A stretch of DNA of 62,715 nt from a virus (IMGVR_UViG_3300008108_000056:1-62715), one strand, 5' to 3'; numbered from the stretch's first letter, positions 6,751-62,715 are shown. The notes: a model not told the origin generated them from the sequence alone. Numbers and translations: made by a program.

Positions 6751-7055
6751 GGTCAGAAATCGTACAAAAAGAAATGTACGATATGCAAATTTTATATAAA
6801 AGATTATCAACTATTGTTGAACATCTTAAGACCTTAGATAAAGAAGAAAAGATTGAGTTTATTGAACAAACTAAAATTTTAATTGAGAAACAAAAAGTAT
6901 TCTATACTAGAATGACTCTTGCAGCAAAGACTGACGAAGAATTAAAAGAAATTGTCAATAATATGAATCGTTTATCTAAACTGTTCTGTGGGGAACCCAT
7001 GATGGATGTGCTGAACAACATGACTGATAAGTTAAACTCATACATCCCCACTTGA
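6735..7055 (+). CDS. DUF1825-like protein
   Basis: FLRSEIVQKE...LIEKQKVFYTRMTL pattern; position between gp59 and gp32. Confidence 0.65.
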   Translation: MSEFLRSEIVQKEMYDMQILYKRLSTIVEHLKTLDKEEKIEFIEQTKILIEKQKVFYTRMTLAAKTDEELKEIVNNMNRLSKLFCGEPMMDVLNNMTDKLNSYIPT

Positions 7056-7080
7056 CACTGCCTAAATAGTGTGTTACTCT
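7052..7080 (+). promoter_or_regulatory. sigma70-type promoter with embedded late-promoter-like CTAAATA
   Basis: TTGACA-17 bp-TACTCT, with CTAAATA at 7062-7068 in the spacer. Confidence 0.7.
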
Positions 7081-12845: not shown

Positions 12846-13037
12846 TTGCATGATAGTTTGGGTAATTATTACAAGACTAATTTTGCCCTCATGCAACATC
12901 ATAAGTACAGTCTTACAGAACTAGAAGATATGATACCTTGGGAAAGAGACATCTATGTAAGGATGTTGATGAAGTGGTTGAAAGAAGAAGAACAAAGGCA
13001 ACGTTCTCAACAAGCACAAGGTAGAATTTCACTCTAA
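12846..13037 (+). CDS. gp51: baseplate hub assembly catalyst gp51-like (possibly the -1 frameshift extension of gp26)
   Basis: YYKTNFALMQHHKYSLTELEDMIPWERDIYV; no ATG or RBS at its 5' end. Confidence 0.8.
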   Translation: MHDSLGNYYKTNFALMQHHKYSLTELEDMIPWERDIYVRMLMKWLKEEEQRQRSQQAQGRISL

Positions 13038-21525: not shown

Positions 21526-21554
21526 TTGACAGGCATATATAATACCAGTATAAT
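21526..21554 (+). promoter_or_regulatory. consensus sigma70 promoter
   Basis: TTGACA-17 bp-TATAAT. Confidence 0.85.
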
Positions 21555-21584
21555 GAACCATGTGAGAGGTTCAGAGATTACCTC

Positions 21585-21613
21585 TTGACAATTTAAAGAG
21601 TACTTGCTACAAT
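21585..21613 (+). promoter_or_regulatory. sigma70 promoter for tRNA-Val/rlpA
   Basis: TTGACA-17 bp-TACAAT with extended TG. Confidence 0.8.
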
Positions 21614-21623
21614 ATCAAGTATT

Positions 21624-21695
21624 GGGAGATTAACTCAGCGGTAGAGTGGCTGCCTTACAAGCAGTAAGTCGTTGGTTCGAGTCCGACATTTCCCA
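21624..21695 (+). tRNA. tRNA-Val(UAC)
   Basis: Acceptor GGGAGAT/ATTTCCC, anticodon arm GCTGC-CT TAC AA-GCAGT, GGTTCGAGTCC T-arm. Confidence 0.93.
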
Positions 21696-21698
21696 CTT

Positions 21699-52336: not shown

Positions 52337-52578
52337 TGAGACTTAAATCTCATGAATCCCCTAGAAATAGGGGAAGAAACAATAAATCACCGAAACGATC
52401 TGCACGAACTCGGCAACTTAAAAAAGCACGAAATATGTTTCTGCAGACTATTGATAAGAAAAACAAATCAGAAGGGGGGTTGACAAACCCCCCTTTTTCT
52501 TTTATATTGTCTGGGTACTCAACGGAGAATAATGACTACGCAACGAACTCTCAGGAAATGGTTTCAAGATCCCATTAA
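52336..52578 (+). CDS. Arg/Lys-rich hypothetical protein
   Basis: GAGGAG RBS; basic N-terminal half; frame runs through the hairpin/promoter at 52472. Confidence 0.45.
   Translation: MRLKSHESPRNRGRNNKSPKRSARTRQLKKARNMFLQTIDKKNKSEGGLTNPPFSFILSGYSTENNDYATNSQEMVSRSH
52472..52508 (+). promoter_or_regulatory. terminator-like hairpin overlapping a sigma70 promoter
   Basis: AAGGGGGGTT-GACA-AACCCCCCTT plus T-run; TTGACA (52480) -17 bp- TATATT (52503). Confidence 0.75.
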
Positions 52579-52981: not shown

Positions 52982-53159
52982 AACGGAGACCAATGTTTTC
53001 AACTCTTGATTCCATCTACCAGTGTGAAGAACTCAATCGTGATTGGATTGATGATGCAATCGACGATGAGATTGATGATAATGGTGACTGGGACGTTACT
53101 GCTGACCATGAATATGGTGAAGTAGAGTATTGATTGAACACTATCCTTACGAGGAGATT

Positions 53160-53762
53160 ATGATGACCAAGACCGAACAATTTATTCAGGCACTGCAATC
53201 TGTGCCCAAAGAAGTATATGCTCTGTTTGTCAAACGGGCACAAGTTCTTTCCTATCAATATCCTAGTGCATTTGGTATGGATTGCTTTGCCCGTGGTGAA
53301 GGAATTGAATATGGATTTCTTGAATCTGTGCAGGATCACATTGATCTGAAACCTAACACTAAAGGACAAGCAAATGATCCTGATTATGTGTTCAATGGTA
53401 ACATCTTCCCTGATGCTAAAACACAATGTGGTGGTCTAAAACCACAGAAGAAAGGCAATAAGTTGTTTTACTCTAATCAGTGGGACATTCAGAAGAAAGC
53501 ACAAGGTGCATCTGAGTTTAAATCAAAGGCAGATTGTTATGTGTTGATTGATCCTCACTATGGTCGCATTGCTGTGATTGATGCTGCTGTATTTTACACC
53601 AAGAAGTTTAAGCAAGGGTCTGCACGTATTTCATTCTCAGTCAAACCTGAAGATGTGACCATGATCTATGATGGTTCTGCAGATGTTGTTGAGGTTGATG
53701 TAAAGAATGATCCTAACGCAATCTTTCAGCAAATCTGGGATAGGACCTTCTTATATGTTTGA
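53160..53762 (+). CDS. putative PD-(D/E)XK, restriction-endonuclease-like nuclease
   Basis: G..IE......, NDPDY.......DAKT spacing resembles a type II REase catalytic core. Confidence 0.45.
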   Translation: MMTKTEQFIQALQSVPKEVYALFVKRAQVLSYQYPSAFGMDCFARGEGIEYGFLESVQDHIDLKPNTKGQANDPDYVFNGNIFPDAKTQCGGLKPQKKGNKLFYSNQWDIQKKAQGASEFKSKADCYVLIDPHYGRIAVIDAAVFYTKKFKQGSARISFSVKPEDVTMIYDGSADVVEVDVKNDPNAIFQQIWDRTFLYV

Positions 53763-53827
53763 TAAGCAGCACTGATCAATGACCCCTTGACATCCCCCTG
53801 ATTCCGTGCCATACTTACAAAGTAATC
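53740..53827 (+). promoter_or_regulatory. early promoter cassette with tandem LysR-like boxes
   Basis: ATAGG-N5-CTTAT (53740), ATAAG-N5-CTGAT (53762), TTGACA (53787) -17 bp- CATACT, TTACAAAGTAATC. Confidence 0.7.
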
Positions 53828-53838
53828 GACAAACACCG

Positions 53839-54075
53839 ATGCCTGACATCACTTACGAGATGAACTTTGCAGATCCTAAGTATTGTGAATGGATCTTCTC
53901 TGATGGTCAATATATTGGAGAGATCCATGGTACTGTACTTGAAGGATACGAACTTCGCAAAGTAAATGAGATCCAACTTGCCGCAGGTGCAAGTGCAGTA
54001 GATCTCGAAACTATCGCATACTTTCAATGTGTATGTGATGCTAAAGATTTTGTTAATCAAGCAGGTACTCTTTGA
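53839..54075 (+). CDS. hypothetical protein
   Basis: First ORF after the promoter. Confidence 0.6.
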   Translation: MPDITYEMNFADPKYCEWIFSDGQYIGEIHGTVLEGYELRKVNEIQLAAGASAVDLETIAYFQCVCDAKDFVNQAGTL

Positions 54076-54231
54076 TGACTCCCGACACTTACACTTTCAC
54101 TGGTGATGCTACTACCTTCCTTGGTTTGGTTGGTGTGGTTTCGTCTTTCATTATTATTGTTGTTGCCTATCGTAGGTATTACAATAGTCCTTACAACATT
54201 CGTTATGTAAAACCTCAAGAGAAAAATACTA

Positions 54232-54501
54232 ATGACTGAAGTTACTCTTATTCGTAAGCAATCTGTTGTTGATGAATTGTGGAAACGAGCAGACAAACTT
54301 GTTGAAACTTACGATGGTGAGATGTTTGGGTCTGCCATCCTCACTAATATGAATCTTCGCATTCTTGAGGATGAATTGATGACACATGAGGAGTTTCATA
54401 GTTCAATTTATGATGAAGATCTAGAAGCAATTCATGATTATATCTGGTTGCACACTAAAGATCATCCATTGTCCCCATATCGTCACTATAACCAGGAATG
54501 A
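54232..54501 (+). CDS. hypothetical protein
   Basis: Packed ORF. Confidence 0.55.
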   Translation: MTEVTLIRKQSVVDELWKRADKLVETYDGEMFGSAILTNMNLRILEDELMTHEEFHSSIYDEDLEAIHDYIWLHTKDHPLSPYRHYNQE

Positions 54502-54655
54502 ATTACATGAAAGAATATATCACTGATGCTGAATATGCTCAGCAAAAGAAACAAGAATATAAACAAAAGAAACTGCGACAACAACTAAAGAATAACACCA
54601 AATCTACTCGTGGATTTGGTTATGATTACAAACCACTTCAATTTGATTATCCCGA

Positions 54656-54850
54656 ATGATGAAACCAACTAAGCATGTATCTCTGGGTGCATTTGTGGGT
54701 ATAATTGCATTTGCTATTGCTTTCCTTGGATTGCAAGCATGGGTGCTTGGTGTTGTTCTAGGATGGTTCGGTATTACACTTGCCTTCTGGAAATGCCTGG
54801 TGATTGTATTGCTTATTGGTACACTTTTCGGTTCTTCTCGTTCTAACTGA
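54656..54850 (+). CDS. small two-TM membrane protein
   Basis: Almost entirely hydrophobic. Confidence 0.6.
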   Translation: MMKPTKHVSLGAFVGIIAFAIAFLGLQAWVLGVVLGWFGITLAFWKCLVIVLLIGTLFGSSRSN

Positions 54851-54852
54851 TT

Positions 54853-55260
54853 ATGAACAAACAAAACGGATTTATTGACCCTGCTGTTGCTGCTATTGCT
54901 GTCGGTGTGGTTGTGATTGGTGGTCTCATCTTTATTGGTGGTCCACAGTATAATGTGTGGCAACAATCTCTTGCTGGTAAAGCAGAACTGCAAAAGGCAG
55001 AATATACTCGTCAGGTTGCTGTGTTGGAAGCACAAGCAAAGAAAGATTCAGCACAACAACTTGCTGATGCTGAGATCATCCGTGCTCAAGGTGTTGCCAA
55101 AGCAAACCAAATCATCGGTGATTCACTGAAAGATAATCGTGAATATCTTCAGTATCTTTATATCACTGGTCTGGAAGAAGGTAGCAACAAAGGTAACGTG
55201 ACGATCTATGTTCCGACCGAAGGTGGTATGCCTGTGCCCACACTTCAGATGAATAAGTGA
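54853..55260 (+). CDS. membrane protein with SPFH/prohibitin-like coiled coil
   Basis: TM helix, PQYNVWQQ...G.A.L..AE, AEIIRAQGVAKANQII, YLQYL, IYVPTE. Confidence 0.7.
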   Translation: MNKQNGFIDPAVAAIAVGVVVIGGLIFIGGPQYNVWQQSLAGKAELQKAEYTRQVAVLEAQAKKDSAQQLADAEIIRAQGVAKANQIIGDSLKDNREYLQYLYITGLEEGSNKGNVTIYVPTEGGMPVPTLQMNK

Positions 55261-55284
55261 ACTTTATCACACACAGTTAAACTA

Positions 55285-55338
55285 ATAAAATAGACTGATG
55301 GGCAGGGGGTTGACTCCTGCCCTTTTCTGTGCCATACT
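55285..55338 (+). promoter_or_regulatory. early promoter cassette (LysR-like box, terminator-like hairpin, promoter)
   Basis: ATAAA-N5-CTGAT, GGGCAGGGG/CTCCTGCCC stem plus TTTT, TTGACT (55310) -17 bp- CATACT (55333). Confidence 0.7.
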
Positions 55339-55344
55339 AAAAGC

Positions 55345-56262
55345 ATGAAAAACACCCATCTAGAGCATCCTGAAGATTCTGTGCTGCTGGGCAAGCAATC
55401 TGTTCAGCAAGTTATCAATTTCCTTCGTGATCGCAATTCTACTGTCAGTGTGAAGTGGGACGGTGCTCCTGCTATTGTATTTGGCACGAATCCTGAGAAT
55501 GGTAAGTTCTTTGTTGGAACTAAGAGTGTATTCAACAAGGTAAAAGTTAAGATCAATTATACTCATGCTGACATCGAGAAGAATCACAGCAACAATCCGA
55601 AAGTTGCTGGTGTACTTCATACCTGTCTTGAAGCATTGCCGAGGGTGGAAGGGATTTATCAGGGTGATTTTATTGGTTATGGTGGTGAAACTACTCTTAA
55701 AGCAAATACTATTACCTATATTTTTGATCCTGAACACCGATATATTCCTCATTGCTCTATCGTGTTTGCTTGTCACACATCTTATACTGGAAGTTCGATC
55801 AAAGAACTGACTGCATCTTTCAGTGTGCCTGAGTATCTGAAGAATAACTTTATGTCAACCTATTTTGTAAATACCAATGCACACATTACCTCCCGTCGTC
55901 GTAGAGTTGATTACATTCTTGGTCTTGCAAGTGTGGTTAGCAATTTTGTTAAATACCCTACGGACAAGAAAGAGATCGAAAGACTGAAGATTGCCATTAA
56001 CAAGTGTATCAAAGAGAATCGTCCTGTTGATTGTATCTCTGGCAATATGTTGCTGCTGTTCAATCTCATCACTCAAGCAAAGGAATTGATCATGGAAGGT
56101 CTTGCATCTTGCGAGATTGTTGATACGATCATTGATCTTGGTGTTGACTATGAAGTGGTCAATCATGAGGGTTTCGTTGCTAGTAACAAGTTCGGCACGT
56201 TTAAGTTAGTCAAACGTCAGCAATTCTCGTTCTATAACTTTACTTTACAGAAGACGTGGTGA
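55345..56262 (+). CDS. DUF6267-like protein (KxDG ligase/nucleotidyltransferase-like motif)
   Basis: KNTHLEHPED, SVKWDGAPAIVFG, FFVGTKSVFNK, YQGD, HEGFV, KLVKR..FS..NF. Confidence 0.7.
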   Translation: MKNTHLEHPEDSVLLGKQSVQQVINFLRDRNSTVSVKWDGAPAIVFGTNPENGKFFVGTKSVFNKVKVKINYTHADIEKNHSNNPKVAGVLHTCLEALPRVEGIYQGDFIGYGGETTLKANTITYIFDPEHRYIPHCSIVFACHTSYTGSSIKELTASFSVPEYLKNNFMSTYFVNTNAHITSRRRRVDYILGLASVVSNFVKYPTDKKEIERLKIAINKCIKENRPVDCISGNMLLLFNLITQAKELIMEGLASCEIVDTIIDLGVDYEVVNHEGFVASNKFGTFKLVKRQQFSFYNFTLQKTW

Positions 56263-56265
56263 TCC

Positions 56266-56331
56266 ATAAGCAACACTGATCGTTTAGGGGTTGACTCTGT
56301 GCCCGTTTTGCCCTATCATTACAAAGTAATC
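56266..56331 (+). promoter_or_regulatory. early promoter cassette with LysR-like box
   Basis: ATAAG-N5-CTGAT, 10 bp, TTGACT-17 bp-TATCAT, ATTACAAAGTAATC. Confidence 0.72.
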
Positions 56332-56343
56332 GACAGAACACAC

Positions 56344-56556
56344 ATGTGGGACGAAATCATGGACATGCCTGGTGAAATCTTCGATTTTAGTGAAGAAGAT
56401 CGTAAGGAAATGATGCAAGACTGGGCAGAGATTCAGGAAGAAAATGAAGAACCTGGATGGGATCTGAATGGTTTCGATGATATTGATGATCGTGATATGA
56501 TGCCTCTTGATATGCAAGACGACATCGAGAAAGATGACCCTCTGCTGGATGATTGA
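56344..56556 (+). CDS. highly acidic small protein
   Basis: MWDEIMDMPGEIFD...; very D/E rich. Confidence 0.6.
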   Translation: MWDEIMDMPGEIFDFSEEDRKEMMQDWAEIQEENEEPGWDLNGFDDIDDRDMMPLDMQDDIEKDDPLLDD

Positions 56557-56638
56557 TGAACATTGTTGACCTTTCTCTTCTTGCCACTTTTATACTTCTA
56601 GTGGGTGGCATTGTATTCTTCTTCAAGGCAATCTACCG

Positions 56639-56833
56639 ATGACTGACGGTTACACTTTCAATCGAGTTGAGTTCACTGCAAACGAAGAGACTTGCATCCT
56701 TAAGTTTCTCAATCAAGCACGAGAATGTGGGTATCCTAGTGCTAACGAAGAATGGTATCCTGTTATTGATTCTATCTTTCAAAAGTTCTTCAATTCTAAC
56801 ATCAAAGAAGCACAAGAGTTTCAGACACGATGA
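56639..56833 (+). CDS. hypothetical protein
   Basis: Packed ORF. Confidence 0.55.
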   Translation: MTDGYTFNRVEFTANEETCILKFLNQARECGYPSANEEWYPVIDSIFQKFFNSNIKEAQEFQTR

Positions 56834-56972
56834 AGTATATTGTTGAGTTATACGTTGGTGGCAAAGTCTTCAAGGAAGAAGTATATGCTACCAACCCCAA
56901 AGATGCGAGGGAGACTGCACTTGCTCGCAATCCCAAAGCAAAAGTTATCGGTGTAAATGTAAGTTTTAACTA

Positions 56973-57179
56973 ATGGAAAACAAGGCACGAATCCTGTCTA
57001 GTTTAGTTCTGTGTGTTGCATACATCATCACTTTGTATGTTGACACAACCCTAGGATCTAGGTTATACTTGTGTGGCAATGCTCTGGCACTCCCATACAT
57101 GATTAAGAACAAATGTTGGGATATTGTTGCATTGCTTGCGTTCTTCATTGTTGTAGGTCTTCCTAGAGCAATCTCATGA
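56973..57179 (+). CDS. small membrane protein
   Basis: Three hydrophobic segments. Confidence 0.6.
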   Translation: MENKARILSSLVLCVAYIITLYVDTTLGSRLYLCGNALALPYMIKNKCWDIVALLAFFIVVGLPRAIS

Positions 57180-57451
57180 AGTTGTTATTTCACAAACCAC
57201 CAGAGGGTTATCACTATGAACGCACAGATTTCAAGAAAGATATATCTGCAATCTGGATTGTCAATGATAGGCATTTTGACTATTGTGGGTGCTCTGGTGT
57301 TAAGTCTATCTGGGGATTCTACAACTCAAAGACAAAACAATTCCACTCACCAGTTAATAGTAAGACAGTGGGTAATGTAGTCGATCTGAATAGAACTACT
57401 GCCTACAGTGCGATGATAAAGTTAAAAGATAAGTTGACCGAATCAGTCTGA
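57176..57451 (+). CDS. hypothetical protein
   Basis: HKPPEGY.Y, IWGFYN.K, TTAYSAM. Confidence 0.65.
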   Translation: MKLLFHKPPEGYHYERTDFKKDISAIWIVNDRHFDYCGCSGVKSIWGFYNSKTKQFHSPVNSKTVGNVVDLNRTTAYSAMIKLKDKLTESV

Positions 57452-57504
57452 TAAGCACTGCTAATGGATCAGGGGTTGACTTTCGACTCCTGATCCTTTA
57501 TTGT
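57429..57504 (+). promoter_or_regulatory. early promoter cassette with tandem LysR-like boxes
   Basis: ATAAG-N5-CGAAT (57429), ATAAG-N5-CTAAT (57451), TTGACT (57476) in a hairpin, -17 bp- TATTGT. Confidence 0.7.
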
Positions 57505-57527
57505 ATTCACATACCAATCAAATCACT

Positions 57528-58760
57528 ATGAAACTGCGACTTCACCAATCCCGTGTGCTCGATGCAATGAACCAGCACAAGATCGGTCAGATCGTTATTC
57601 CTACTGGTGGTGGTAAGACTCTTTGCATGATCATGAATCTGCTGCAACGTTTTGTGCAGAATCCTGGTCAGGTTGCTGTTGTTGTTGCTCCTCGTATTCT
57701 GCTTGCTGAGCAACTCTCCGCAGAGTTTCTGGAGTTTATCACCAGTGCAAATGTGATGCACGTTCACAGTGGTGAAACTCATCACTATTCTTCTACCAAG
57801 TCTGACAAGATTGCGGAGTGGGTTGTTAATCATGCGGACACCAATCGTATCATCTTCACCACCTATCATTCTCTCGGTCGTGTTGTTGATGCTGGTGTAG
57901 ATATTGACGTTGCCTATTTCGATGAGGCACACAATTCTACGCAGAAGAAGCACTTTATTGCCACTGCTGCTGTATCTCTGTCCGCAGATAGCAAGTATTT
58001 CTTTACTGCTACTCCCAAACATCACACCAATCCTGGTGCTAATGGCATGAACAACTTTGAGATCTACGGAAAGATCATTGAGACTGTTCGTGCTCAAGAA
58101 CTGATCGAGACTGGTTGCATCATTCCTCCGCAAGTTGATACCTACAAAGTAGATATTACCCGTGACAAACGCACTGCTGCTGAGGCAGACCGCAACATGA
58201 TTGTGGACATTCTCGATAACATCGAGCATGACAATCCTAAGGTGCTCGTTGCTGCTCCTAGCACAAAAGTGATGTGGAATATGCTCACTAACTCTGACAT
58301 CCTGAAAGAGTTGGAAGATCGTGGATATGGCATCCTTCACATTACATCTAAGCATGGTGCCTATGTTAATCGTACAAAGGTGAATCGTGAGAAGTTCTTT
58401 GACACTCTGACCGAGTGGGGCAAAGACAAATCTAAGAAGTTTGTGCTGCTTCACTATAGCATCCTGTCCGAAGGTATCAACGTTCCTGGTCTCTCTCACT
58501 GCATTATGTTGCGTCAGATGCCTATCATCGAGATGGCACAAACTGTGGGTCGTGTGATTCGTATGGACAAAGATGATGCTGCTGATATTGCATCTGGCAA
58601 GATTCCTGCTGGTGCATGTCATCTGTATCGCAAGCAGTTTGGTAGTGTGATCGTGCCTGTGTTCACCAACTACGGTAGTGCTATTGCCAAACGTTTGCAG
58701 GGTGTTGTTGATACCATCTTCGTGCAAGGTATGCCTGCCATCTCTACCATGACTCGGTGA
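57528..58760 (+). CDS. SF2 DEAD/DEAH-box helicase (ResIII-like)
   Basis: LRLHQ, PTGGGKT, APRILLAEQL, TTYHS, FDEAHN, TAT, LSEGINVP, QTVGRVIR. Confidence 0.93.
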   Translation: MKLRLHQSRVLDAMNQHKIGQIVIPTGGGKTLCMIMNLLQRFVQNPGQVAVVVAPRILLAEQLSAEFLEFITSANVMHVHSGETHHYSSTKSDKIAEWVVNHADTNRIIFTTYHSLGRVVDAGVDIDVAYFDEAHNSTQKKHFIATAAVSLSADSKYFFTATPKHHTNPGANGMNNFEIYGKIIETVRAQELIETGCIIPPQVDTYKVDITRDKRTAAEADRNMIVDILDNIEHDNPKVLVAAPSTKVMWNMLTNSDILKELEDRGYGILHITSKHGAYVNRTKVNREKFFDTLTEWGKDKSKKFVLLHYSILSEGINVPGLSHCIMLRQMPIIEMAQTVGRVIRMDKDDAADIASGKIPAGACHLYRKQFGSVIVPVFTNYGSAIAKRLQGVVDTIFVQGMPAISTMTR

Positions 58761-58790
58761 GTTCTTTACACTTTCACTTTTTTCGTGATC

Positions 58791-58821
58791 GGGGCTATCA
58801 GGGATGACCTGATGCCCCTTT
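58791..58821 (+). terminator. hairpin after the helicase
   Basis: GGGGC(T)ATCAGG/CCTGATGCCCC stem followed by TTT. Confidence 0.5.
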
Positions 58822-59345
58822 GCCGTAGAATTGCAGATTATTTGGGTTTTGACCCCAGTGGTGGCAAGGGTTCTCAGGTGAGACTCCCCCTAGACTGATG
58901 GCAGCAGCAGACCCTAGCATCATTCCCCACTGTGCCAGTCACTCAAACTGTCCACCAATCCCCCCAAAGGGCACCGATGCCCCCTATGATTACAAAGTAA
59001 TCGGAAATCACTCAAATGCAACGACTCGATGTTATCTGTCCTTCCGCACCTTGGGAGAACACTACTACCGATGAAGATCGTGCATGGGATCTCTGTCTTT
59101 CTCTCTCTGAGGAATACGGTTATGCACAAGTTCGTCAGAATGGTATCATCATCGGTGATTACACTAACGGTCGCTGAATCATGAAAAACTATCGTGTTCG
59201 TGTTGAAACCTACGATCAATGTGTTACCATTTGGTATGAGAAAAGCAAGGCAAAGTCCGCAGACAAATTGATTCTCAACCGTGTCTACAATCAACTCTGT
59301 GGGTTGAACATTAAGGAAATCTCTGTTACTCCATCTGTCTGAATC

Positions 59346-59543
59346 ATGCAATTCCAAGTTATTGACATCGAGTTTGATTTTGATGAAGATGATGACTTTC
59401 CCGAGCATGAGTTTAGTAATATCTTCTACGAAACTATCGGTATGATTTGGGAGGCAGATGATGAAGATGAACTAGTCGAAGAGATCACTGCTGCTACTGG
59501 TTGGTGTATCAAATCCATTGATTATCGTCACGTTCTGAAATGA
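59346..59543 (+). CDS. acidic hypothetical protein
   Basis: FQV.DIEFDF...WEADDEDELVEEIT.ATGWCIKSIDYR. Confidence 0.65.
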   Translation: MQFQVIDIEFDFDEDDDFPEHEFSNIFYETIGMIWEADDEDELVEEITAATGWCIKSIDYRHVLK

Positions 59544-59734
59544 GTTTCGACTTTCTTCTCGCAGCAATCCTATCAGCACGGGCAGCAAATACTGTTCCCA
59601 ATGCTGAATATGTGGATCGGTATTGTGCCGAGTTAGTTGGTATTCCCTACGCATCTGACAACTTTACAGATAGTGAATGGGCACAATTTAAGACATGTAG
59701 AGAAGTTATGAATGAACGTAGGACCTATCAGTAA
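59540..59734 (+). CDS. hypothetical protein
   Basis: CAELVGIPYASDNF. Confidence 0.55.
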   Translation: MSFDFLLAAILSARAANTVPNAEYVDRYCAELVGIPYASDNFTDSEWAQFKTCREVMNERRTYQ

Positions 59735-59792
59735 CACTAATCATTCAGGGGTTGACTCTGTGCCCCATCCGTCCTACCATTACAAAGTAATC
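59727..59792 (+). promoter_or_regulatory. early promoter cassette with LysR-like box
   Basis: ATCAG-N5-CTAAT, 10 bp, TTGACT-17 bp-TACCAT, ATTACAAAGTAATC. Confidence 0.7.
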
Positions 59793-59981
59793 AGGAAACG
59801 ACATGGATCGCAATCGCACCCGAATTGCGTATTAAATACTGCTTCGAGTTTCTCACTGGTTATGTTGCTGATGGTGATGATCTGATGGCAGGTCGTTGTT
59901 ACGATGGCATCGCAAAGTACAGTGACAAACTTGACTGGTCCGAAGCACACTTCTGATTCCATTCTTTACACTCACAAACAA

Positions 59982-60266
59982 ATGTCTAACTACGTTTGCA
60001 TCACTTTCGGTCCTCGCAATGATGATCCTGCACAATTCTGGAATGAGAGAACTTTCTGGGATCGTCAATCACAAGCAGAAAAGTGGGGTTTGCAATCTCT
60101 CTCGATCGCAGGAACTTTCGGTTACGTTGTGATCGAAGATGGAGAGGATTCGTGGAAGATTGTGGATGAACTAGGAGCACCTGCTAATGCTGTAAGTGTG
60201 AGTGCTGAGTATAAAGGTGGAGTGACCTATTCTGTTCAACCTGCCCCTGTACTTCTCGGAGTCTGA
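59982..60266 (+). CDS. hypothetical protein
   Basis: ATG after an A/C-rich leader. Confidence 0.6.
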   Translation: MSNYVCITFGPRNDDPAQFWNERTFWDRQSQAEKWGLQSLSIAGTFGYVVIEDGEDSWKIVDELGAPANAVSVSAEYKGGVTYSVQPAPVLLGV

Positions 60267-60729
60267 TGAACTACAGAATGAAGATTGTGTTCTCTCCAAT
60301 TATCTCCTGGCATCGACATATTACAGGATATTGGGAGAAGAAACTACCACATCTTCCTGGAGCAAACTCTAAACAATTCTGGAACATTATCAACGGAAAC
60401 TGATGAACAAGCAAATGCAAATGATCGAGATTCTGCAAGACGAATGCCGCAAAGATGTGGATCTCCTCGATACTATCATTGAGGAATATGTGTTGGGATT
60501 GAATGCTTCTGAGGAGGCAAATCTAGAAGATTTCATTGTCAACAATTTCGGAGATCTGTGATGCCTATTCGTTATTGGATTGCTGGTGCATGTGCGTTCT
60601 CCGTTATCATCGGTTGGAACGTATTCTTGATTGCTCGTGATAATCAACTGTTCCGTGCTCAACAACAACGTGCTGCGGAAGTCTGTAAGATGGTTGCAGA
60701 GTTTCAGTACGATTGCAAGGGAAAGACTC

Positions 60730-60806
60730 ATTAATTCTGCTTATCAGACCCATAAGCAAAGATGATCACCCAACCCCTTGACCTGACCCCTGATCCGTGC
60801 CATACT
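60730..60806 (+). promoter_or_regulatory. early promoter cassette with tandem LysR-like boxes
   Basis: ATTAA-N5-CTTAT (60730), ATAAG-N5-ATGAT (60752), TTGACC (60778) -17 bp- CATACT. Confidence 0.7.
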
Positions 60807-60852
60807 ATGTTCATCGGGGGTTGAGAGAGATCCCCACCACAAACATCCTCAA

Positions 60853-61107
60853 ATGACTGTTACTTTCCAAACCAACATTGCAGACAAAACCTACAACGGT
60901 TGGACTAACTACGAAACCTGGAATGTTGCACTGTGGATCGGAAATGATGAAGGTCTGTATGATCTTGCTCGCAACTTCACTGATTACGATGATCTCGTCA
61001 CCGTGCTTTATGAAGAGTTTGGACAGAAGCAAACTCCTGACGGTGTGAAGTGGAACGATCGTAAGATCAACCGCATCGAACTCAACGAAATGCTCCAAGA
61101 TCTCTGA
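60853..61107 (+). CDS. conserved hypothetical phage protein
   Basis: YNGWTNYETWNVALWIGNDEGLY motif. Confidence 0.75.
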   Translation: MTVTFQTNIADKTYNGWTNYETWNVALWIGNDEGLYDLARNFTDYDDLVTVLYEEFGQKQTPDGVKWNDRKINRIELNEMLQDL

Positions 61108-61135
61108 TTTAACTAACACACAAAACACTCAAATC

Positions 61136-61351
61136 ATGAAACTGTTCATCATCAACAACGTCCTCTCTGATTATACTGACGGCATGGCAGTGATTGCTGC
61201 TGAGTCTAAAGAACAGTGCCGTGAGTTGTTTATCAAAGAGTTCAGTGAGTATCATGCTGATGAGTTCGATAAGTATGCAACCTTTACTGTTATCGAATCG
61301 GTTGGACTTGACGAGGCAGGTATAGTTCAATATGTGTACGGTGGTGGTTAG
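61136..61351 (+). CDS. hypothetical protein
   Basis: VLSDYTDGM.VIAA; ends YGGG. Confidence 0.6.
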   Translation: MKLFIINNVLSDYTDGMAVIAAESKEQCRELFIKEFSEYHADEFDKYATFTVIESVGLDEAGIVQYVYGGG

Positions 61352-61746
61352 TTTTGTCTCGTAAATCCCTCACTTTCAAAGCACCTAATTCCATGAATCT
61401 GATCACTGTTCTGATCATCGTCCTCTGTGTAATCTCTCCCCAGATGCGTTATACTGTAGGCAGTGCATTTATCTTCATCGGTAACACTCTCCAAGGTGAA
61501 ATCAAATGAGTCGGGAACAACGTCAAACGAACGCAATCCGCAATCAAACAATCCAAATCCGACCTGTCCTGTTTAACAACAAACCCACAAACAAGAATCA
61601 CAAATGAGTTACAAAGATCTGCTAATCGAGTCCGAGCAATATGTTATCAATGCACGAGAATCTAACTTCACCGATGAACAAATCATGACTGATCTTATCA
61701 TCGAGTTTGATATTCAAGAAGAAGACGCAATCTACTTCCTCGCACA

Positions 61747-62013
61747 ATGACCAACGATCTCTACACTGAAATCCTTAAATCTGAACGCACTCCAATGACA
61801 CTGACCGAAGCACAATTTGATCAACTGAAAGAGACCTATGCCTACATGATTGTGGACGATATGGATATGAAAACTCTGATCCAACTTGCCACTGACACTA
61901 TCATCGACAATCTCAAATCGTATGATCAAGATGAACTCAGGGATGAAATCGTAGAACTGTATGATGAAGAAGTCCTAGACAATCTCCTGCAAGAAGTTAT
62001 CACTGAAGGTTGA
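61747..62013 (+). CDS. acidic hypothetical protein
   Basis: YAYMIVDDMDMKTL. Confidence 0.6.
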   Translation: MTNDLYTEILKSERTPMTLTEAQFDQLKETYAYMIVDDMDMKTLIQLATDTIIDNLKSYDQDELRDEIVELYDEEVLDNLLQEVITEG

Positions 62014-62268
62014 CAAAATGAAAGACTTCACCTATACTGATCCCTGTACGATTGCTCTACAGTATGAACAACAATATAGGGACAATCTAGACTGGGATGA
62101 TCTACTCTCCCCTGATGAATACCTAGACCATCTTGATCGCAAACTGTATGAACAATCGAATCGTTACTAACATCGACAACGAACAACTCAGTGAAATCAT
62201 CATGGAAGAAATCATGCAGTTGGATGATACGGAGATCGAAAAGTATGTAGAGTCGATGATTGCGGAAC

Positions 62269-62312
62269 TTTTCCACAGTTATTGTTAATTTTGTGGAAAA
62301 ACCTGTGGAAAA
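62269..62312. promoter_or_regulatory. cluster of three DnaA boxes
   Basis: TTTTCCACA at 62269 (+); TGTGGAAAA at 62292 and 62304 (-). Confidence 0.6.
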
Positions 62313-62387
62313 AGAAATACCTTAATTAATATAGGGTGAGTGTTTGTTATCTCTTGTAAATGTGCTGAGTTGATGTAAGTTAAGCCG

Positions 62388-62416
62388 ACAATACCACGAA
62401 ACCCCACAAATGTCAA
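62388..62416 (-). promoter_or_regulatory. leftward sigma70 promoter
   Basis: Reverse strand TTGACA-17 bp-TATTGT. Confidence 0.6.
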
Positions 62417-62427
62417 GATCCCAGACC

Positions 62428-62503
62428 ATCAGAATACCTGATCACCCCCATAAGCAACACTTATCCGAAAACACTTGACTTCCCCTGCCAGATGCCCTAT
62501 ATT
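62428..62503 (+). promoter_or_regulatory. early promoter cassette with two perfect LysR-like palindromes
   Basis: ATCAG-N5-CTGAT (62428), ATAAG-N5-CTTAT (62450), TTGACT (62475) -17 bp- TATATT. Confidence 0.75.
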
Positions 62504-62569
62504 GAGTGCATCGGAGGGAAGGGAAACAACCCAACCCCCACAACTCTCAAACCTTCTCAAGTCTCTCCC

Positions 62570-62715
62570 ATGCGTAAGATCGAACGACTGATGAATGCTG
62601 CTATCACTGCAGGCAAAGATTGGAAACTCGATAACACTGAGGTCGTTTCATGTTCTCATGTTTCTGATGTCTATCTGCACGGCAATCTGATTGCTCGCAT
62701 TGGTGAAACTTGGAT
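62570..62715 (+). CDS. hypothetical early protein (partial, runs off the window)
   Basis: MRKIERLMNAAI...NTEV...VYLHGNLIA. Confidence 0.65.
   Translation, partial: MRKIERLMNAAITAGKDWKLDNTEVVSCSHVSDVYLHGNLIARIGETW

Follow-up and report, generated by a model that had tools for sequence, protein, structure and literature searches.

The question raised by this locus is which protein, of phage or of host, reads a set of inverted repeats that stand at fixed distances upstream of promoters in a cyanophage genome. The DNA concerned is a 62,715-nucleotide viral stretch (IMGVR_UViG_3300008108_000056:1-62715), called the window below and always meant at its full length; it is one 62.7-kb contig of a T4-like cyanomyovirus whose closest named record is Synechococcus phage S-CREM1 (Kyanoviridae; host Synechococcus sp. 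CB0101). The repeats are 15 bp dyads, with a proximal box next to the -35 hexamer and, at some promoters, a distal box 22 bp further upstream. The phage boxes and boxes upstream of the host carboxysome (cso) genes and of some psbA genes are the same dyad, repeated at the same 22 bp interval and standing in the same helical phase with a TTGAC -35 element. We read the tandem dyads (ATAAG-N5-CTTAT, with the middle arm position free) as putative operators of the host regulator RbcR, which would modulate nine phage promoters, and we put the chance that this reading is right at about even. That a host LysR factor of the RbcR class is the best candidate for the boxes is well supported by computation.

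Box strength was scored as the number of matches at the eight arm positions of AT.AG-N5-CT.AT, taken at 15 TTGAC promoters of the window. A proximal box of at least 7/8 is present at nine of the 15 (7052, 52480, 53787, 55310, 56291, 57476, 59752, 60778 and 62475), where the background frequency of scores of at least 7 is 0.0007 per position. At four of these nine, a distal box of at least 7/8 lies exactly 22 bp upstream (53740, 57429, 60730 and 62428, scoring 7/8, 7/8, 7/8 and 8/8). The joint pattern ATNAG-N5-CTNAT-N10-TTGAC has six matches in the window, against a mean of 0.00 and a largest count of 0 in 100 dinucleotide-preserving shuffles. A T-N11-A dyad of about 15 bp, as expected of a LysR-type operator, is thus found at nine promoters. 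Information content within the window is higher in the arms than in the spacer for both the proximal box (1.81 and 0.86 bits) and the distal box (0.69 and 0.24 bits), although the proximal spacer (GCAACAC) is partly conserved and so not free.

Much of this had been seen in an initial annotation made from the sequence alone, which placed the dyad 10 bp before TTGAC at 53762, 55285, 56266, 57451, 59727 and 62450 and 11 bp before it at 60752. All of these coordinates are right, as are those it gave for the four second copies; the copies at 53740 and 57429 do lie inside coding sequence, the arms at 62428 and 62450 are fully complementary and hence perfect palindromes, and the spacers are, as it had supposed, less conserved than the arms. 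Its degenerate version of the dyad has 11 matches on the plus strand of the window and 10 on the minus strand, and seven of the 11 plus-strand matches precede TTGAC by 10 bp (six) or 11 bp (one), with a -10-like hexamer 17 bp later. It listed five promoters as lacking the box, correctly for 21526, 36131, 43882 and 52088 (scores of 3-5/8) and wrongly for 7052, which has a full box at 7027, and it overlooked the boxed promoter at 52480. The confinement of the boxed set to 53.7-62.5 kb therefore has to be given up: the promoter at 7052 is that of gp32, and the regulon extends beyond that block.

Host genomes, which we reached via the PsbA protein of S-CREM1, contain the same boxes. The tandem pattern, with at most one mismatch, was found in 33 of 101 sampled Cyanobiaceae genomes, against 3 of 101 for the reversed control. 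Of 33 tandem loci collected from host genomes, 25 adjoin purM, 24 of these also a divergent rlpA-like gene, and four are upstream of psbA. An extended dyad (ATNAGC-N3-GCTNAT) gave 25 sites in five host genomes and none with its control, an imperfect control in that its base composition differs. Six of the 25 sites precede psbA, three precede csoS1-cbbL, two lie between purM and the rlpA-like gene, and the others are in open reading frames (ORFs) or other intergenic regions.

Upstream of csoS1 the arrangement is fixed. The csoS1-cbbL set comprised 30 RuBisCO loci from a sample of 61 Cyanobiaceae genomes, mostly small ones of Prochlorococcus size, and three loci found earlier. All 33 have, in order, TGATAAG-N5-CTTAT, 7 bp, a second site (A..A...AC.GT[G/A]AT), 21 bp, TTGAC(G/T), 18 bp and CATTGT. 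The arms of the first dyad are invariant or nearly so (A32 T33 A25 A33 G33 / C33 T33 T32 A33 T33 of 33), and the distance from the start of this dyad to TTGAC is 58 bp in 31 of the 33 loci. The same dyads stand upstream of some host psbA copies. In two of three other cyanobacteria examined, rbcL is preceded by a comparable site, ATCAG-N5-CTAAT in Synechocystis salina (8/8) and ATTAG-N5-TTAAT in a Paraprochloron genome (7/8).

The commonest host site of the tandem dyad, the intergenic region between purM and the rlpA-like (DPBB_1) gene, has other conserved blocks as well, one of them a third dyad-like site at a distance of about 70 bp. The idea that the host sites found about 5 kb from contig ends adjoin rRNA operons was dropped: Rfam gave no match in 20 loci, and the genes beside these sites are purM and the rlpA-like gene.

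The likeness between phage and host extends to geometry. Measured from the first base of TTGAC, the dyad centres are at -51 and -29 in host cso promoters and at -40 and -18 in the phage (each a base further out where the gap is 11 bp); the phage pair is thus 11 bp, exactly one helical turn, nearer the -35 than the host cso pair and on the same helix face. The 22 bp tandem period is common to the window (four of nine promoters), to viral contigs and to hosts, and in all three the two sites are about two helical turns apart, as for a LysR tetramer. At host psbA, 42-43 bp separate the end of the second dyad from the -10 in three genomes (G050, G061 and G003), and 32 bp do so in a fourth (G098); the G098 register is that of the phage, and the dyads of the other three stand about 10 bp further upstream. 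Counted from predicted transcription starts, dyad centres lie at about -53 and -75 in the phage and at about -87 (the strong site) and -65 at host cso. The middle arm position is A, C or T on the left and T, G or A on the right in the phage, and A or T in the host cso site.

The arrangement recurs in other viruses. A scan of viral contigs for a proximal box followed by TTGAC returned at least 137 stretches holding 139 matches; 136 of these had enough flank and reduced to 113 unique sites, 80 of them with a -10-like hexamer at the right distance. Among the matches listed, to which every count over these 80 sites refers, a distal dyad that had not been sought appears exactly at -22 (A 50, T 62, A 57 ... 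C 47, T 48, A 44, T 46 of 80), the bases between its arms being free, and an A stands five bases upstream of TTGAC in 74 of 80. Scanning instead for two dyads 22 bp apart, with no -35 required, gave at least 119 viral loci; among the matches listed, 45 of 119 have TTGAC downstream, at a distance of 10 bp in 22 of them and of 11 bp in 23, and the remaining 74 are mostly unrelated repeats of other phages. In whole phage records, the dyad with TTGAC was counted four times in S-CREM1 (reversed control, one), six times in S-H38 and once in DSL-LC03, and not at all in Syn9, S-SZBM1, S-SKS1 or Syn1. The psbA promoter of S-CREM1 has no dyad in register.

Two features of these viral sites may be recorded beside the dyads themselves. 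The tetranucleotide GATC is repeatedly found where the proximal box ends on its 3' side (CTGATC; for example window 53772-53777 and 56276-56281), the base after the box being C in 69 of the 80 sites; the host second site contains it too (GTGATCG), as do many viral promoters between -35 and -10. Where it overlaps the operator it may be a Dam-type methylation site. Gene starts resembling MR.IE... often follow boxed promoters in the listed viral matches.

The candidate reader is a protein of the host. Genes with the LysR helix-turn-helix (PF00126) are few in the five host genomes, with one in G098 and in G093, two in G080 and in G061 and three in G050. The strong PF00126 match in each genome is one and the same conserved protein, which is the sole LysR protein in two of the five and keeps more than 80% identity between Cyanobium and Prochlorococcus. 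In some Prochlorococcus records it is called 'RuBisCO operon transcriptional regulator', and NCBIfam places it in the LysR family with no specific cut-off passed; on sequence grounds, it is the predicted RbcR orthologue. CIRCE, Fur/Zur-type and phage-repressor operators were set aside as having different spacing or half-sites. Passages of a review (PMC13249358) quote from Bolay et al. 2022 the RbcR motif ATTA(G/A)-N5-(C/T)TAAT, with which the motif given in the initial annotation agrees. They state that its effect is activating when it lies some 90 nt before the start site and repressing when it lies near -10, and that rbcLXS and ccmK genes are induced by RbcR. The same passages give ATAG-N8-CTAT for NdhR and TTA-N7/8-TAA for CmpR, motifs of a different geometry, and two of the five host genomes have a single LysR gene. 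Of the earlier proposal of a host factor from the RbcR/CmpR/NdhR class, RbcR stands, now as the best candidate in view of the host dyads, and the other two are not supported. RbcR control of csoS1-3/cbbLS in Prochlorococcus MED4 has been inferred in a 2026 preprint (bioRxiv 10.64898/2026.04.15.718746).

The window dyads resemble the RbcR operator of cyanobacterial RuBisCO and carbon-concentrating-mechanism promoters, read by LysR proteins of the CbbR/Ycf30 type, in their 15 bp length, 5-5-5 geometry, T-N11-A ends and identity at 8 of 10 arm positions, the middle position being the one that deviates. A further likeness is the presence of the dyad before host csoS1-cbbL in 33 of 33 loci, with the host strong site near -87 where the review passage has about 90 nt (PMC13249358). 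They differ from that operator in standing on phage DNA, in having A or any base rather than T at the middle arm position, in combining two good dyads 22 bp apart, and in their centres (-53/-75, the strong dyad being the one beside the -35).

If RbcR is the reader, a tetramer would bind with one DNA-binding dimer per dyad, on the same helix face as RNA polymerase, and would modulate initiation at the boxed phage promoters, activation being the more likely direction. Small, presumably early phage genes and gp32 would then respond to host carbon and light status, and the boxes, multiplying with the phage genome, would thereby also soak up RbcR. The fixed phase argues for contact with RNA polymerase, and for this reason we favour control of initiation over a pure decoy. 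That the boxed genes are early we infer from their kind (small ORFs in a variable block, and gp32), from their sigma-70-type promoters and from exchange with a Syn9-type element.

Several observations weigh against RbcR as the regulator of these promoters. The polarity is reversed, the strong dyad being proximal in the phage and distal at host cso and psbA, and the Synechocystis RbcR consensus has another base in the middle of the arm (ATTAG, against ATAAG here). In the classical LysR layout the strong site is near -65 and the weak one overlaps the -35; the phage centres, at about -53 (strong) and -75, differ from it, and no phage site overlaps the -35. Phage -35 and -10 hexamers are near consensus, so that the promoters may fire without an activator. 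The boxes track phage lineage and not host, with four in S-CREM1 and six in S-H38 and none in S-SZBM1, which has the same host strain as S-CREM1. In the host genomes, no strong dyad lies upstream of rbcR (best score 5-6/8), so autoregulation through such a site is not visible; no dyad of at least 7/8 lies upstream of rbcL in a Limnothrix genome, the third of the other cyanobacteria; and RbcR as the protein at the Cyanobiaceae cso dyad is itself something we infer. Sequencing runs add little here: two RNA-recorded runs contain small shares of region 53000-62715, and the contigs of two RNA runs, one presumed-RNA run and one DNA run are uninformative, giving no starts, ends or strand.

RbcR might bind the boxes chiefly as a decoy target, being drawn away from the host cso-cbbL and psbA sites. 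Phage promoters would then fire with or without it, and the host would express less carboxysome and RuBisCO as the roughly 13 dyads per phage genome multiply. Cyanophages are known to lower host CO2 fixation. The window packs nine proximal and four distal boxes into 62.7 kb, compared with 2-10 exact dyads in each of the five host genomes, its boxes are often better palindromes than the host second sites, and promoters so close to consensus perhaps need no activator. A decoy, however, needs no fixed distance to the -35, yet that distance is 10 or 11 bp at all nine boxed window promoters and at 45 of the 119 listed tandem sites, the helical phase matches that of host promoters, and no box in the window lies outside a promoter. 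We consider a mainly titrating role unlikely.

A different host factor, such as a dimeric regulator of photosynthesis genes, could instead occupy the boxes of the phage together with the cso, psbA and purM sites of its hosts, which we regard as quite unlikely. In its favour are four points already met: the assignment of RbcR to the Cyanobiaceae cso dyad is indirect, rbcR itself has no upstream dyad, the site positions are unlike those of classical LysR regulators, and the purM / rlpA-like site, with 25 of the 33 tandem loci, is no obvious carbon-fixation target. RbcR is favoured over such a factor by the fit of the 15 bp T-N11-A dyad and its 5-5-5 geometry to the published motif, by the host strong site near -87, by the target operon, which is one that RbcR controls in Synechocystis according to the relevant passage of PMC13249358, and by the single LysR gene in two of five host genomes, Cyanobiaceae having few regulators overall.

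The reader could also be encoded by the phage, made early or delivered with the DNA, and act as an activator or as a repressor that shuts off early promoters in favour of middle ones; likeness to the host cso dyad would then be mimicry, with host RbcR sites occupied too, or coincidence. The distribution of boxes fits such a protein, since they go with the phage lineage (S-CREM1 boxed and S-SZBM1 not, both infecting CB0101) and Syn9 has a different upstream box (GTCCAC) at comparable promoters. The best palindromes of the window precede a conserved Kyano_Gp96 gene of unknown function, and most small window ORFs belong to no known family. Gp96 is, however, a family-wide Pfam, found in boxless phages too; the 31 small window ORFs gave no DNA-binding Pfam family and only DUF7249 and DUF7326; and no LysR helix-turn-helix is encoded in S-CREM1, in S-H38 or in the window, which the initial annotation had likewise described as free of LysR genes. 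Promoters presumed to fire first cannot need a protein not yet made. A host factor is the simpler explanation of arms that coincide exactly with a host site unchanged between Prochlorococcus and Cyanobium and that share its 22 bp period and helical phase, and we hold a phage-encoded reader to be improbable.

That the boxes bind no protein at all, and are passengers of mobile PeSL-like promoter-terminator cassettes spread by recombination between small genes, appears very improbable: three promoters do embed the -35 in a strong terminator hairpin as in the PeSLs described in part of PMC4122927, promoter type is swapped at an orthologous gene (dyad at 53787, GTCCAC at L001:12961 in S-CREM1) and the proximal spacer is partly conserved in the window, but conservation is restricted to dyad arms, -35 and -10 with linkers and flanks free, distal copies lie within coding sequence, and the dyad is also fixed in host genomes, in which cassettes of this kind play no part.

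The locus has points of contact with three known systems. Composite promoter-terminator cassettes of T4-like phages, the PeSLs, were reportedly described by Arbiol and colleagues in 2010, and are characterized as promoter-terminator cassettes of T4-like phages in the pertinent part of Comeau et al. 2014 (PMC4122927). Some window promoters resemble them in being of sigma-70 type with a stem-loop just upstream or overlapping and with small flanking ORFs in variable regions, and there are signs of possible exchange between close relatives. PeSLs, in the part of PMC4122927 that describes them, have an AT-rich upstream region and no dyad operators phased to the -35, and no cyanophages figure there. 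A strong hairpin, moreover, is present in just three of the six window promoter regions that were folded. Doron and colleagues are said to have reported in 2016 an early-gene regulatory element in cyanophage Syn9, likewise an upstream element specific to small-gene promoters, in a comparable part of a T4-like cyanophage genome. The Syn9 record differs from the window in having no dyad with TTGAC anywhere and in carrying a GTCCAC box in its intergenic regions, where the window has one such promoter. Boxes for host regulators in cyanophage promoters are themselves familiar, as NtcA sites and as PhoB boxes before phage pstS. The present boxes resemble these in that a phage promoter would be read by a host nutrient-status regulator; they differ in that the regulator would be of the LysR class, in marking an entire promoter block where the known boxes mark single auxiliary metabolic genes, and in being tandem and in phase with the -35. 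No report of RbcR or LysR boxes on cyanophage promoters was found in the literature searched, outside which Doron et al. 2016 lay; as far as these searches reach, an RbcR-type operator pair marking a block of promoters is new, and host-regulator boxes on cyanophage promoters are not.

Table 1. Dyad boxes, promoters and hairpins of the window (window coordinates)
Feature	Coordinates	Strand	Details
Proximal box ATAAGTTAAACTCAT (ATAAG-N5-CTCAT)	7027..7041	+	8/8 arm positions; 10 bp 5' of the gp32 promoter -35
gp32 promoter TTGACA-17-TACTCT, sigma-70-type	7052..7080	+	gp32 by Pfam match
Weaker proximal box	52454..52468	+	7/8; 11 bp 5' of the -35 at 52480
Terminator-type hairpin holding -35 TTGACA, then T run, -10 TATATT	52470..52508	+	-20.5 kcal/mol, z -3.85
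Distal box	53740..53754	+	7/8; 22 bp 5' of proximal box; within ORF 53130-53762
Proximal box ATAAGCAGCACTGAT	53762..53776	+	Pattern match, arm score
Promoter TTGACA-17-CATACT	53787..53815	+	Next gene from ATG 53840
Proximal box ATAAAATAGACTGAT	55285..55299	+	7/8
Hairpin with -35 TTGACT in loop, then T run, -10 CATACT	55300..55338	+	-19.1 kcal/mol, z -3.79
Proximal box ATAAGCAACACTGAT	56266..56280	+	Pattern match, arm score
Promoter TTGACT-17-TATCAT	56291..56319	+	Promoter scan
Distal box	57429..57443	+	7/8; within ORF 57176-57451
Proximal box ATAAGCACTGCTAAT	57451..57465	+	Near 7-1-7 palindrome
Hairpin with 14-bp stem holding -35 TTGACT, then -10 TATTGT	57466..57504	+	-23.2 kcal/mol, z -6.23
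Second-type promoter: GTCCAC box, C-rich spacer, TATGAT, no TTGAC	58950..58990	+	Upstream of gene at 59016; not boxed
Proximal box ATCAGTAACACTAAT	59727..59741	+	Pattern match, arm score
Promoter TTGACT-17-TACCAT	59752..59780	+	Promoter scan
Distal box ATTAATTCTGCTTAT	60730..60744	+	7/8; overlaps end of ORF 60558-60734
Proximal box ATAAGCAAAGATGAT	60752..60766	+	7/8; 11 bp 5' of the -35
Promoter TTGACC-17-CATACT	60778..60806	+	Gene 60853-61107 (DUF7249) next
Distal box ATCAGAATACCTGAT	62428..62442	+	8/8; arms perfectly complementary
Proximal box ATAAGCAACACTTAT	62450..62464	+	8/8; arms perfectly complementary
Promoter TTGACT-17-TATATT	62475..62503	+	Kyano_Gp96-family gene from ATG 62570, runs off window

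Among the promoter regions folded (Table 1), the hairpins at 52470, 55300 and 57466 are strong (z -3.8 to -6.2), and those at 53787, 56291 and 59752 are weak or absent; one further boxed promoter was predicted without a hairpin by the hairpin scan. The element at 52470..52508 is a composite terminator-promoter. The promoter at 55310 is followed by gene 55345-56262 (DUF6267), and that at 57476 by a helicase gene (ORF listed from 57501, ATG 57529 to 58760). The gene behind the two perfect palindromes, at 62570-62715, belongs to the PF23790 family (Kyanoviridae Gp96), as does its S-CREM1 orthologue (L001 21061-21378; PF23790 E 1.7e-39). At 21526-21696, tandem near-consensus sigma-70-type promoters (TTGACA-17-TATAAT and TTGACA-17-TACAAT) stand directly upstream of tRNA-Val without a dyad box.

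The second promoter type is common in Syn9 intergenic regions (L139 43131, 44792, 46308, 47222 and 49096), mostly without TTGAC, and occurs in S-CREM1 at L001 12961 and 17860. The gene at 53840 has a dyad-type promoter in the window and a GTCCAC-type promoter in its S-CREM1 orthologue (the one at 12961), which indicates that the two types replace each other. A leader, TACAAAGTAATCG(A/G), directly follows the -10 of four promoters (53816-53831, 56320-56335, 58991-59006 and 59781-59796), and the same leader precedes small genes in marine cyanomyoviruses without dyad boxes (Syn1, S-RIM44, metaG-MbCM1, S-CAM7 and S-SZBM1); it could be a start-site or translation-initiation signal. A contig of a related phage, from an RNA library, joins the equivalent of window 53778, at the end of one box, to that of 62492, in the spacer of another cassette, with a -35 of its own between; this single contig is weakly consistent with cassettes that share functional elements only.

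Elsewhere the window has Pfam matches to RNase H, ThyX, PhoH, gp59, gp32, baseplate proteins and gp5, and also to a tryptophan halogenase, several 2-oxoglutarate-Fe(II) oxygenases and a helicase; it contains six tRNA genes. S-CREM1 covers 59% of region 53000-62715 at 84% identity. At least half of the sampled sequence words of this region occur in 16 public runs, mostly labelled freshwater, river or lake metagenomes, the exceptions being one 'fungus metagenome' and two plain 'metagenome' runs; run contigs over the region are mostly 90-95% alike to it and therefore come from relatives.

Apart from the phage itself, the comparison yields a candidate RbcR operator, invariant across the sampled Prochlorococcus, Synechococcus and Cyanobium genomes, and a small candidate regulon of cso-cbbL, some psbA copies and the purM / rlpA-like region, in organisms for which regulator-DNA maps are scarce. 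For the phage, a wider proposal can be put forward tentatively, as a possibility to which we give distinctly less weight than to the operators themselves: a lineage comprising the window, S-CREM1, S-H38 and many uncultured relatives may have brought gp32 and its first genes under the control of host RbcR by copying the operator pair of the host carboxysome and psbA promoters one turn nearer the -35, so that the start of infection would read carbon and light status, and replicating genomes would strip RbcR from the host and help to shut down CO2 fixation. Why cyanophage infection depends on light and photosynthesis, and how phages lower host carbon fixation, are questions that concern microbial ecology in both marine and fresh waters. 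A DNA element common to phage promoters and to the RuBisCO/carboxysome and psbA promoters of the host provides a concrete hypothesis, one that could be tested at the bench with S-CREM1 and CB0101, which are in culture.

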